A DNA stretch of 64,000 bases, taken from contig CAVSYT010000006.1 in NCBI GenBank assembly GCA_963732285.1, forward strand, positions 46,610-110,609. Reading direction: 5' to 3'. Origin of the DNA: an uncultured Methanomicrobiales archaeon. GTDB lineage: Archaea > Halobacteriota > Methanomicrobia > Methanomicrobiales > Methanospirillaceae. Position 1 is the stretch's first letter. Each line of letters begins with the position of its first letter. The notes under the pieces are model-generated. The model saw only the letters and a program-made list of their open reading frames with translations, did no database searches and was not told the origin of the DNA. Positions 14,217 through 16,785 of the stretch are shown here, piece after piece. The translations under genes were made by a program, and so were the position numbers.

Positions 14217-15107
14217 GATTTTGCCATTTTTACAGGGGTAATTATTATCAGCGGTTGTTTACCTGCCTGAATCTGGCGATTGTATGCCCGTTTATATCCG
14301 GTTGATTCAAAAACCTGTCGGCTGATTCTAAAAAATGAGACACTCCGTTTTTATGATGTAACCTTTACCGGTAGCAGGTTTTCATCAACGGATAGTCCCC
14401 GGATTCCGGTTATCACCTCCACATTCTTTCTGAATATCCTTGTTCTGCAAAGTTCCGTGGAGTGTCTGCCCCTCTTATTGGAAATGGTGCATGTCCGCCA
14501 TTGTCGATAAAACCGGATGCGGAATTGCGATGTACAGAAACAACGGAATAGTGTAGCCAGAGGGCTGCATTTTTCTGAGCCAATGTTACCTGATCGCTAT
14601 CAGGTTGCGTTCTGAACGCTTCTCCTTTTATTTCTGTCATAATTATTTTCCCGTTCCATTGATTTTTCATTGCCCGGTACATTATTCCCTTTCCGATATT
14701 CCTGAGGTGATTCCTGATATCCACTCGGGTGAAGTGTCCTGTTCGCTTCAGGTTCTTGTGTGCGTCTTCCCAAACAATGTTAAGATCCGGGATCTCATAG
14801 TGGGAGTACTGTCAGTATACAAGTGAATTTTATAAATGTATCTGTATTTACAATGGGCATGCAGGATTAAAAAAATCCATACGGCGGGTGATTGCACCGT
14901 CACACATTTCAAACCCTTAATTGAGTCTGATTTTAACGATTATCGACTCTGTTGAAATCCTATTTTCCCGTTATTCGCTTATTCTTCTTGTGTGCTTGGA
15001 GGGTGACCCCCTCTCTCCCCCAGAGGGGGAGGCAGCCCAAGGGGAGCATCCTCTTGACCCCCCCCTTTTTTTAGAGGGTTTCCCATGAAAATTGGATAAA
15101 ATGAAGT

Positions 15108-16367
15108 TCAATCACTAAGCCCCAACCGGAAAATTTCCTGATTACGATCCCTGATAATAACTTCCGAAGCTTTAGACAATAATTCGATGATTCTGTTGAT
15201 ACCCACATCCAGTATTTTCTTAGGCATTTTCGGGAATTTGACCTGTTTGGATCTGGAGAAATCATCAACGAATACTTCATCATGGACCAGGAGATGCCAG
15301 ACAATCCTTAGCATTTTGCGAGCAACAGCAACAATTGCTTTCTTGTACCCTTTTTTGGCATCAATCGTTCGAAAAACGTCTTGAGTCGGCCCGGAGATCG
15401 AATAGCCACGTGCGCAAGTTCAACAAGGATCCATCGGATATGTTTTGAACCCTGTTTTGTAATAGAACCGGTTCTCGTTACATTCGCGGATTGATAAACG
15501 GAGGGTGTCAAACCAGCCCATTTGGTAAGTTTATCTGCATCTTCGAAGTCGTGAACATTCCCGATCTCTGCGATAAGTGTTGACGCACCGATAAATCCAA
15601 TTCCGGGGATTGACGTCAGGATCTGGATCTCCCGGGATTTGCCGGTCAAAGCTTCCCGAATTCTTCCTTCGAGATGTTTAATCTCGGTATCAAGATCATC
15701 CACAAGCTTGAGGTATGATTCAAGAAGAACAAGGAAGACCGGAGGAATTGATGCGGGTATTGCAGCAGAAATCGCATCTGCGCGTCCTTTCACTTTTTTA
15801 GGAAGAGATTTGATGATCTCTTCGAAAGGTTTGTTCTGTACCAGTCCTTTGAGAATTATTGGCCCGGACTTTCCGAATAAGTCCGAGAACACCGAGGACA
15901 ATCGGATATTGGCACTGTCGAGAAGATGGTGAATTTTGTTCTTGAGTTCGGTCCGGTTTTGTACGAGTAATTCCCTGCTTCGGGTCAGGGAGCGGAGATC
16001 ATACATCTCTCCGGCAAATATTCGCGAAGGCGTAATCAGGCTGTTCAGTTCTAACTGGGCAATCCAACGGGAATCTGTTATGTCTGTCTTTCTTCCAGGA
16101 ACATGTTTGATGTGATGCGCATTTGCAACGGTAACTGGTACCCGATTCTCTAGAACCAGATACAAGGATCGCCAGTAATCTGCCGTTGATTCAAACGCTA
16201 CTGAATCGCAGTTCTCAGATTGGATCCAGTCTCGAAATTCAAGAAGCGATTCGGTGTTCTGCTGAGATTCTCCTCGTCTCACACTTTCCCTCTCGATCAA
16301 GAATCGTAGCGACAAGAAATGCCTTATGGACATCTATCCCACAAACTTTTCGTTTCTCTGTTGACAT
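15108..16367 (-). CDS. IS110-family DEDD transposase/recombinase (frameshifts near 16268 and 15350)
   Basis: CGIDVHK, FESTADYW, KTDITDS (DEDD); SIPGIG, AEIG, AGLTPSVYQS, ITKQGS, KAIVAVARKML after frame correction. Confidence 0.92.
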
Positions 16368-16375
16368 ACTGATCC

Positions 16376-16504
16376 TGTGGGCAGCTGATTCCTGTACACG
16401 GCAATTTCCCATCCGCGTTCCATGACGCATTCGGGTGTACGGGAAGGACTACTTTCTACAACAGGATTTGGATCCTAAAATCCTCTCAGTCTTTGCTGCC
16501 CACA
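16376..16504. ncRNA. Candidate bridge/seek RNA in the IS110 upstream non-coding region
   Basis: 10-bp closing stem TGTGGGCAGC/GCTGCCCACA enclosing two stem-loops with internal loops containing TTTCCCAT (donor end match) and TTTCTACA (7/8 target match). Confidence 0.65.
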
Positions 16505-16785
16505 AAAAGTGATTTCATTTTGAGCAATTTTCATGCTTTGGGTGTGAACTCTCGTTCATGTGTGTTTCAACAGAGCCCGATTATCAAAAAATTCAGGAGA
16601 GAAACTGATACGATACCTTGTATTTACTCCCCTCGCACTTCCTTTATTGCGTGCCCTGCCGGGTCCCCGGGACGGGGACTCGTCCCTGGTAAAGCCGGAT
16701 GTTATCCGGGTTTTTTCTGATATATCAACGTGACGTAAATAACAACGCTTTAATATTGCGTACCGGTTATTATCGTAAGAATATC

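Follow-up and report, generated by a model that had tools for sequence, protein, structure and literature searches.

What is the 1482-bp insert that interrupts one end of a small repeated element in this window (the whole 64,000-nucleotide stretch of DNA analysed), and how did it come to lie at that exact position? A first-pass annotation had proposed an IS110-family element of an archaeon, inserted site-specifically at the inner edge of the terminal inverted repeat (TIR) of a MITE, which would serve as a renewable target without being disabled.

The insertion sequence and its host MITE

The IS110-family insertion sequence occupies positions 15083-16564 on the minus strand. Its family identity is confirmed by two Pfam domains of the transposase gene (DEDD_Tnp_IS110 and Transposase_20; 15108-16367, minus strand), which lies in three ORF pieces: PF01548 (DEDD/RuvC-like, N-terminal) was found on a 341-aa piece with E=1.9e-19 and PF02371 (Transposase_20, C-terminal) with E=1.5e-25, and the first-Asp motif GIDVHK is found on the upstream piece. 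The host is likewise archaeal, a Methanoregula, and its assembly is 63% complete. Two 1-nt indels, one near 15350 and the other near 16260-16265, break the gene. Relatives carry neither frameshift, an intact 419-aa orthologue is present in a different species, the transposases of G007 and G055 are intact, and contigs from four metagenome runs have one base more at 15350 and one base less at 16260/16265. The copy in the window is probably inactive owing to the two frameshifts, or mis-assembled at both positions.

The ends follow the IS110-group layout of a long left end (LE, 197 nt) and a short right end (RE, 25 nt), with the RNA described below at LE nt 61-189. The RE (15083-15107, minus strand) is non-coding, has the tip ...CAATTTTCATGG and includes, at 15084-15094, one arm of an 11-bp subterminal repeat, CATGAAAATTG, located at LE nt 31-41 and RE nt -12 to -2. 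The left-end tip (16520-16564, minus strand), which is kept by all of the miniature derivatives discussed below, comprises CACACATGAAC, the hairpin GAAC-GAGA-GTTC, ACACCCAAA and the other repeat arm (16524-16534). Subterminal inverted repeats measure 2-3 bp in the IS110 group and 7-17 bp in the IS1111 group, compared with 11 bp here. GAAA stands at both IS junctions, and the tips have only CATGAA in common, with no classical terminal inverted repeats.

On the plus strand, TTTC is found at each edge of the insert, at 15079-15082 and again at 16565-16568; the first copy adjoins the IS right end and reads GAAA in the IS sense. Excision of 15083-16568 regenerates a 24-mer that stands unbroken at 10845-10868 (plus strand), where MITE copy E3 has its intact right TIR, and the splice of 15058-15082 to 16569-16577, TTTTTAGAGGGTTTCAACAGAGCC, is the same as this E3 sequence. 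The bounds and the restored E3 end given by the first-pass annotation proved exact to the base. Its claim of an empty site within the window holds in part: the TIR at 10845-10868 is unoccupied, but it is a paralogous target rather than an orthologous pre-insertion allele. As it had also noted, the outer 13 bp of the interrupted TIR outlast the insertion, at 16565-16577 (plus strand), where the second core copy and the surviving outer right TIR (TTTCAACAGAGCC) give GGCTCTGTTGAAA when read inward.

An exact 8-bp TSD, CGATTATC, brackets the MITE and the IS at 14937-14944 (left copy) and 16578-16585 (right copy), hence a single MITE encloses the entire insert. Directly after the left copy comes the left TIR, GACTCTGTTGAAATCCT (14945-14961), and this TIR and the body extend through the inner right TIR, AGAGGGTTTC (14945-15082, plus strand). 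Members of the family are small (full length 142-147 bp), non-coding and present in high copy number (>100 copies by BLAST), with a 17-bp TIR and, in many copies, exact 8-bp TSDs, all of which are features of MITEs. One metagenome contig (X2) skips 14944-16628, and because it lacks the MITE and the IS jointly, it dates neither one separately. The kinase gene beside the locus shares only 67-73% identity with its counterpart in the nearest species, where the MITE is absent. The TIR resembles the ends of IS26 or IS903, and the family may be an IS6- or IS5/IS903-derived MITE. No parent transposon was found; PF13610 genes are absent from the source genome and, in the 12/61 relatives that have them, no MITE TIR lies nearby. 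A search for TIR pairs 0.9-3.5 kb apart returned none except the pair enclosing the IS.

Insertion specificity and a candidate bridge RNA

The left end abuts ...CTGT(T/A)GAAA in every case, indicating sequence-specific insertion in a single orientation, and the recurring flanks bear out the proposed specificity for a GAAA core at the inner edge of the MITE TIR. Full-length relatives, 87-89% identical, are present in two other Methanoregula genomes. In G005, L023/L055, G090, G055, G102 and G113, the left end is adjoined by (G/A/T)GCTCTGTAGAAA, which agrees with the 3′ guide of the RNA at 8/8 positions, and GAAATCC lies directly beyond the right end in G005 and L023, the loci that include a right end. 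A 95%-identical copy on a lake metagenome contig aligns from 15068 to 16577 and then differs on both sides, which places it at a separate locus with the same TIR halves. The flanks that had been predicted for every site, CTCTGT(T/A)-GAAA-(T/C)CC, were recovered in 7/8 full-length relatives from other genomes and in ~80-90% of ~100 miniature copies, but not at every site. The copy of G007 is placed between TATAGAAA and GAAATCCAAAA, with no recognisable TIR. Across the genus, the insert/TIR junction was found in 32/61 Methanoregula genomes, hence the pairing of MITE and IS is long-lived. In G055-like genomes, many contigs stop at this junction.

A candidate bridge RNA can be read from the left end. 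Its core (16376-16504, minus strand) is predicted to form a 10-bp closing stem around two arms, one target-binding and the other donor-binding. In the target loop, the 5′ side, AGAGGAUUU (16478-16486, minus strand), is antisense to the core and inner TIR (AAA(T/C)CCTCT), and the 3′ side, UUGUAGAAAG (16452-16461, minus strand), has the sense of the outer TIR and core (TGT(A/T)GAAA). The first-loop guides UGUAGAAA and AGAGGAUUU jointly spell TGT(A/T)GAAA(T/C)CCTCT, which is the TIR. The 3′ side of the donor loop, AUGGGAAA (16405-16412, minus strand), equals the IS right tip ATGG followed by the core GAAA.

In the structural alignment, 90.5% of cells are paired, compared with 30-40% in slid controls, and 18/30 pairs have changed on both sides; 0/500 shuffles gave a structure as good. 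Over 9 lineages and 7 guide types, the 3′ target guide matches the left flank at 63/81 positions (permuted 46.7 ± 3.8, p=1.5e-4). The donor guide matches the right tip at 40/40 positions in 5 lineages with differing tips (GGG, GAC, ATT, AGG, GCC), a score reached among 120 permutations by the true pairing alone. Agreement of the 5′ target guide with the flanks is only 5-8/9 in several lineages. The sole matching bridge RNA of the source genome has an A opposite the T of the dominant local TIR variant, TGTTGAAA (one mismatch), and the right-type TIR presents a further mismatch to the guide, beside the core. Neither inspection by eye nor a covariation analysis of four close copies revealed an RDG equivalent, a guide to the left tip. 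ACACCCGAA, on the 5′ side of the donor loop, resembles LE nt 21-29 in the same sense, for which the IS621 model gives no account. In Rfam, the left end has no family match, and one miniature copy has a sub-threshold match, to sroC.

At the level of compared sequences, the boundaries, the site specificity, the RNA structure and the covariation of the guides with flanks and tip are established. They point, with a probability of roughly 85%, to a Methanoregula IS110-family element that integrates by bridge-RNA-guided recombination. The LE would encode an RNA, ~130-190 nt long, that contains two internal loops. The first would specify TGT(A/T)GAAA(T/C)CCTCT, the end of the abundant MITE with 8-bp TSDs, and the second would read, on its 3′ side (AUGGGAAA), the IS right tip and the core. 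The donor would be an excised circle, joined as ...CAATTTTCATGG-GAAA-C(G/A)(C/G)(A/G)CATGAAC..., whose RE-LE junction may supply the promoter, and the transposase would work together with the RNA as in IS621; the target sequence for this RE-GAAA-LE donor would be GGCTCTGTAGAAATCCTCT. Strand exchange within the shared GAAA/AAA core would leave one core copy per junction, with the left end facing outward each time. The same machinery, acting in trans, would account for the ~100-125 miniature copies.

Miniature derivatives and competing readings

These minis, 215-250 bp long and numbering ~100-125 per 2.2 Mb, lie at the same TIR position and carry neither transposase nor bridge RNA. Only ~45 nt at the left tip and ~25 nt at the right are kept, and all minis retain the conserved DNA hairpin and the 11-bp subterminal repeat. 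They were gathered by a profile search blind to flanks, in which 99 copies extend to the left tip. The TIR 13-mer stands immediately outside 78/99 of them at ≤2 mismatches and 87/99 at ≤3, with ~1e-5 expected per site; the association of minis and TIRs is well beyond chance. No mini subfamily is confined to one type of TIR: each is found in left-type as well as right-type TIRs, and subfamily A occupies a third MITE type besides. At a tandem mini-mini junction, a lone GAAA lies between the right and left tips, which fits a shared core instead of a TSD. No bridge RNA was detected in the minis by BLAST, by RNAalifold (51 copies) or by a covariance model. The total returned by the covariance model on the genome, just 2 bridge RNAs and one remnant, likewise leaves the minis without a bridge RNA. 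GC-rich hairpins are conserved within the minis.

In the window, a 291-bp non-autonomous mini is found in the left TIR of E3 (10441-10731, plus strand), between GAAA at 10437-10440 and at 10732-10735, and a 62-bp micro-element is nested in it (10661-10722). The ends of this first IS110 lineage are in turn the target of a second one, which has 62-bp micro-derivatives. On balance, we lean slightly towards a three-tier stack in Methanoregula, composed of the MITE, of IS-a with a bridge RNA directed against the MITE TIR, and of IS-b with a bridge RNA (UCAUGAAAA) directed against the IS-a tips; the ~220-bp and 62-bp derivatives would be wholly trans-dependent, and the guide layout would be mirrored relative to IS621.

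The inserts might instead have spread as cargo, the IS and the minis riding in longer MITE variants that are moved by the MITE's transposase through the outer 13 bp; the many insertions would then have arisen by copying of a few composites and not as separate events. Indeed, 8-bp TSDs flank the MITE with one or two minis, and the MITE with the IS, as they do plain MITEs, and the composite pair C2/C11 is near-identical in insert and body. However, the TSDs of composites would be expected equally had the MITE landed first, and the more similar minis do not lie beside more similar MITE bodies (Mantel r=0.03, p=0.36, n=22; r=-0.07, p=0.78, n=27). Spread as cargo is rendered very improbable by these results, by the presence of all mini subfamilies in both TIR types and of subfamily A in the third MITE type, by full-length copies of other species that lie in TIR-like sites where the inner sequence is unrelated, and by a site that is spelled by the guide RNA. 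Direct recognition of the TIR DNA by the transposase, with the complementarity of the left-end loop being incidental, is also highly unlikely. It would fit the lack of a guide for the left tip, whose positions 2-4 vary (ACA, GCA, GGG, AGG) with the RNA unchanged in step, and the hairpin and 11-bp subterminal repeat present in all minis could be protein sites. Against this, three guide segments change from lineage to lineage in step with the DNA that they match, the RNA structure is conserved with compensatory changes, and the family is known to be RNA-guided (PMC11208160).

Within bridge-RNA-guided integration, the role of the MITE can be read in two ways. The first-pass annotation viewed it as a renewable safe harbour for the IS110, which it may be, and one that insertion does not disable; on the latter point, no sign was found that composites of MITE and insert re-amplify. 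Insert and body are uncorrelated and C2/C11 is the only composite pair near-identical in both parts, hence nothing indicates that MITEs still transpose once occupied. Alternatively, the RNA may simply be programmed for a word of ~14 nt of which the MITE end is the commonest instance, with no safe-harbour strategy and with occupied MITEs being dead. This possible, though doubtful, account has the same mechanism and differs in evolutionary interpretation alone. It is consistent with the G007 copy, at a partial match outside a recognisable TIR, with related lineages of the genus that aim at unrelated A-rich words, with the lack of observed composite re-amplification and with the age of the copies (mean pairwise identity ~0.7). 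It is opposed by the occupation of ~45% of the TIR 13-mers of the source genome (80/~185), by the genus-wide association (32/61 genomes) and by the sister lineage, which also aims at mobile-element ends and suggests a recurrent repeat-targeting habit.

Bridge recombinases are under development for programmable genome writing, and their mechanism is known almost wholly from a few bacterial elements. The archaeal clade offers a readable bridge RNA, many lineages with differing guides and, as a data set, hundreds of natural insertion sites with 0-2 mismatches. Its natural donors of 62-250 bp show the needs in cis, namely ~45 nt of left tip (hairpin and subterminal repeat) and ~25 nt of right tip. 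If the three-tier stack is true, these genomes record hundreds of bridge-recombinase insertions and define minimal natural donors. The MITE family and its IS110 "lodgers" occupy much of the intergenic space in a methanogen genus, in which these mobile elements nest by preference in one another's ends and not in host genes.

Relation to known IS110-family systems

Like IS621 (PMC11208160, PMC11208158), the element has a DEDD and Tnp_20 recombinase and an RNA encoded in the left end, whose closing stem encloses two internal loops, the target loop preceding the donor loop. In both, the guides include the core and the natural target is a repeated element (REP for IS621). The equivalent guides sit on the 3′ sides here, contrary to the IS621 layout (PMC11208160); the core is CT in IS621 and 3-4 nt (GAAA) here, where an 11-bp subterminal inverted repeat is also present.

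According to Partridge & Hall 2003, as relayed in PMC11208160, IS4321 and IS5075 (IS1111 group) integrate into Tn21-family transposons, within the 38-bp TIRs. These are likewise IS110-family elements that enter the TIR of another transposon at a single position and always in the same orientation. They are bacterial, belong to the IS1111 group, encode the RNA at the right end and are hosted by large autonomous Tn3-family transposons, whereas the present element is archaeal, has the RNA in the LE, targets a 145-bp MITE in >100 copies and is accompanied by ~100 non-autonomous derivatives at the site.

In Coxiella burnetii, 20/21 IS1111 copies lie within QMITE2 (PMC5896051), so that there, as here, a multicopy MITE is the preferred landing site of an IS110-family element. 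That system differs in being bacterial and in that the target is a GTAG REP within the MITE, not its TIR; minis at the site are not reported. ISPpu9 of Pseudomonas putida (PMC12288879), an IS110-family element as well, occupies repeated extragenic sequences and has a MITE-like non-autonomous partner with the IS ends, MITEPpu9, whose mobilisation is presumed to occur in trans (PMC12288879). MITEPpu9 has 8 copies and carries the sRNA gene ssr9, whereas the minis here number ~100-125 per 2.2 Mb, lack a bridge RNA and, in the sister lineage, can measure just 62 bp. Targeting of repeats, TIRs or MITEs by IS110-family elements thus has bacterial precedents and, because of IS4321/IS5075, IS1111/QMITE2 and MITEPpu9, the archaeal case, itself a new variant, is a variation on known behaviour.

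The insertion site and its host MITE

The IS110 copy of the window (15083-16564, minus strand, 1482 bp; lineage IS-a) is bounded by TTTC core copies at 15079-15082 and 16565-16568 (plus strand, read directly from the sequence; GAAA in the sense of the IS). Excision of 15083-16568 brings ...TTTTTAGAGGGTTTC against AACAGAGCC and restores a 24-mer found without change at 10845-10868, where it forms the intact right end of the MITE copy E3. The boundaries and the uninterrupted E3 end proposed in the first-pass annotation are therefore correct to the coordinate, and the sequence is as described. 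The octamer CGATTATC directly adjoins the left repeat end on its outer side (14937-14944) and recurs directly outside the right end (16578-16585), indicating that the entire insert is enclosed by one element, whose terminal inverted repeat (TIR) is 17 bp long and whose target site duplication is an exact 8 bp.

This host element qualifies as a true MITE. Its reconstructed sequence gives well over 100 BLAST matches in the 2.18-Mb, 11-contig assembly, and exact 8-bp direct repeats frequently flank TIR pairs spaced 94-147 bp. In a sediment-metagenome contig, 14943 is joined to 16629 through 45 unrelated letters, implying a related strain without the MITE, and hence without the IS, at this locus. 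No autonomous partner was found in this genome or in Methanoregula relatives; the MITE ends presumably resemble those of IS26 or IS903 type.

The longest ORF piece of the insert carries the DEDD_Tnp_IS110 and Transposase_20 domains, as the earlier IS110 assignment predicted, and near-identical IS copies in public MAGs labelled Methanoregula show the host to be an archaeon. Alignment with 87-89%-identical full-length copies of two sister species, where one orthologue is an intact 419-aa protein, revealed two private 1-nt indels in the window copy. In contigs of four unrelated metagenome runs there is consistently one more base at 15350 and one fewer at 16260/16265, hence the window copy has either decayed or been mis-assembled in two places; as it reads, it looks defective. 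The assembly, 63% complete, contains no other full-length IS-a copy. A second IS110, roughly 70% identical, is found on contig C2 of this genome (L016/L050, about 376185-376440), directly next to a related target-binding loop that is present as a truncated copy. The flank of this second IS110 is GATCCTGTTAAAAAAAC and its own guide region GAUCCUGAUAAAAAAAC; it apparently entered a sister element, within the DNA that encodes the guide.

A bridge RNA with guides to target and donor

The 197-nt left end (LE) is predicted to form a 10-bp closing stem enclosing two stem-loops, both of them interrupted by an internal loop. When a covariance model derived from six sequences was run against 101 Methanoregula genomes, 19 contained homologues. 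In a 30-row alignment, 90.5% of cells are paired versus 30-40% with slid partners, both partners have changed in 18 of the 30 pairs, and 0 of 500 shuffles were as good, figures somewhat flattered because the alignment was fitted to the model.

In the target (first) loop, the 3′ guide UUGUAGAAAG has the same sense as the flank at the left end, and the 5′ guide AGAGGAUUU is antisense to the flank at the right end. The target predicted from both, TGTAGAAATCCTCT, matches the actual window site, TGTTGAAACCCTCT, at 12 of 14 positions, and the left flank ...CTCTGTAGAAA shared by G005, L023/L055, G090, G055, G102 and G113 matches the guide at 8/8. Other lineages associate guide with flank as follows: UGGAGAAA with TGGAGAGA, AUAAAAAAA with TTAAAAAAA, UCAUGAAAA with CCATGAAAA, UUUAAAAAA with ATTAAAAAA and UCACAGAAA with CAACAGAAA. 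Guide and flank agree at 63 of 81 positions across nine lineages, compared to 46.7 ± 3.8 with permuted flanks (p=1.5e-4). In the donor (second) loop, the 3′ side AUGGGAAA is identical to the right tip and adjoining core, and its variable trinucleotide tracks the right tip in five lineages (40/40 positions). The known mechanism of the family is an RNA-guided recombination of the target with the RE-core-LE junction of the excised circle (PMC11208160), and three of the four expected contacts fit it. No left-tip guide was found in the bridge RNA, and left-tip positions 2-4 vary with no corresponding RNA change.

On its 5′ side (ACACCCGAA), the donor loop resembles nt 21-29 of the left end (ACACCCAAA), read in the same sense (window 16430-16445 and 16536-16545), and a G/A difference is matched within copies (G,G in L023; A,A in G005). 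In another Methanoregula genome (G042), a related IS110 occupies 19 loci (e.g., L063, L073, L074 and L078) with identical bridge RNA scores, guides GGAAAAAAAC and UCGAAUUUU and the tip-core TGCCAAA, and was probably active there recently.

Gene-less derivatives, nesting and spread

The TIR 13-mer GGCTCTGTTGAAA occurs 241 times in the genome at ≤2 mismatches, running on into the MITE body in about 100 cases and directly into an IS-type left tip in 80. The latter belong to gene-less derivatives (minis) of 215-250 bp, which retain roughly 45 nt of left-tip sequence and roughly 25 nt of right-tip sequence; their complete copies fall into two clusters, one of 56 and one of 12. A flank-blind profile search gave 125 mini matches, of which 99 extend to the left tip; the 13-mer adjoins 78 of these 99 at ≤2 mismatches and 87 at ≤3. 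One mini occupies the left TIR of E3 (10441-10731). The covariance model found no bridge RNA in minis, implying that RNA and protein are both needed in trans.

Minis could have spread as passengers of composite MITEs. However, every mini subfamily occupies both left-type and right-type TIRs, and mini similarity is uncorrelated with that of the MITE bodies beside them (r=0.03, p=0.36; r=-0.07, p=0.78), which argues for independent insertions and not composite amplification. The same result lends no support to an occupied MITE staying mobile. The initial interpretation stands in part: a site-specific use of MITE TIRs, here RNA-guided, holds, while insertion "without disabling" the MITE is unproven, as is the MITE's role as a renewable safe harbour.

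A GC-rich, hairpin-folding module (e.g., window 10500-10620; CCGCCGCGGGGGCGyCCC..GGGGCGGCGG then GTTCATCATAAT) is present and highly conserved in every mini subfamily and has no match in Rfam. On contig C7 of this genome (about 91487-91812), two minis stand in tandem, the right tip of one joined to the left tip of the other through a single GAAA (TTTTCATGG GAAA CGAATATGAAC). A circle junction, or an insertion into a hybrid RE-core site, would be expected to give this sequence.

The target loop of a second IS110 lineage, IS-b, UCAUGAAAA(C), is the reverse complement of the IS-a right tip plus subterminal repeat. IS-b loci are L070 in G007 (L002:2980-4472 plus L048), L057, L060 and L076. In G007, IS-b lies tail-to-tail in the right tip of an IS-a copy (...GGATTTC-CCATGAAAA/CAAACACG...), a context also seen in G064 and on G007 contig C45. 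Seven 62-bp micro-derivatives of IS-b are present in this genome, six in mini right tips and one in a left-end subterminal repeat; the window copy (10661-10722, minus strand) lies inside the mini of E3, so that micro-derivative, mini and MITE are nested.

Of 61 Methanoregula genomes sampled, 32 contain the TIR-left-tip junction, with 68 copies in this genome and 30-39 in each of three others, and 51 contain the intact TIR motif; controls with reversed patterns had no match in any genome. In G055, many contigs start or stop within about 250 nt of the CTCTGTAGAAAC...CATGAAC junction, and two full bridge-RNA matches lie at contig ends (L056, L069). This pattern suggests that several full-length IS-a copies remained unassembled, and thus that the element was recently active in that genome.

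Comparison with known IS110 systems

REPs are targets of IS621, ISPpu9 and ISPpu10. IS1111 inserts in a REP within QMITE2 of Coxiella (PMC5896051), IS4321/IS5075 insert in TIRs of Tn21-family transposons (cited in PMC11208160), and the MITE-like associate of ISPpu9 carries the ISPpu9 sRNA (PMC12288879). The core idea of the first-pass annotation therefore has bacterial precedents, and a literature search found no description of a MITE-TIR-targeting Methanoregula IS110 system. The RNA in the left end is an IS110-group feature, and the 11-bp subterminal inverted repeat is IS1111-like. The equivalent guides are on 3′ sides, giving a mirror image of the layout described for IS621, and the IS621 model does not account for the same-sense likeness between the donor-loop 5′ side and the left end. 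Compared to the bacterial precedents, the archaeal domain and the TIR of a high-copy MITE as target are new, as are the amplification scale of minis without bridge RNA, the mirrored guide layout and the nested second lineage.
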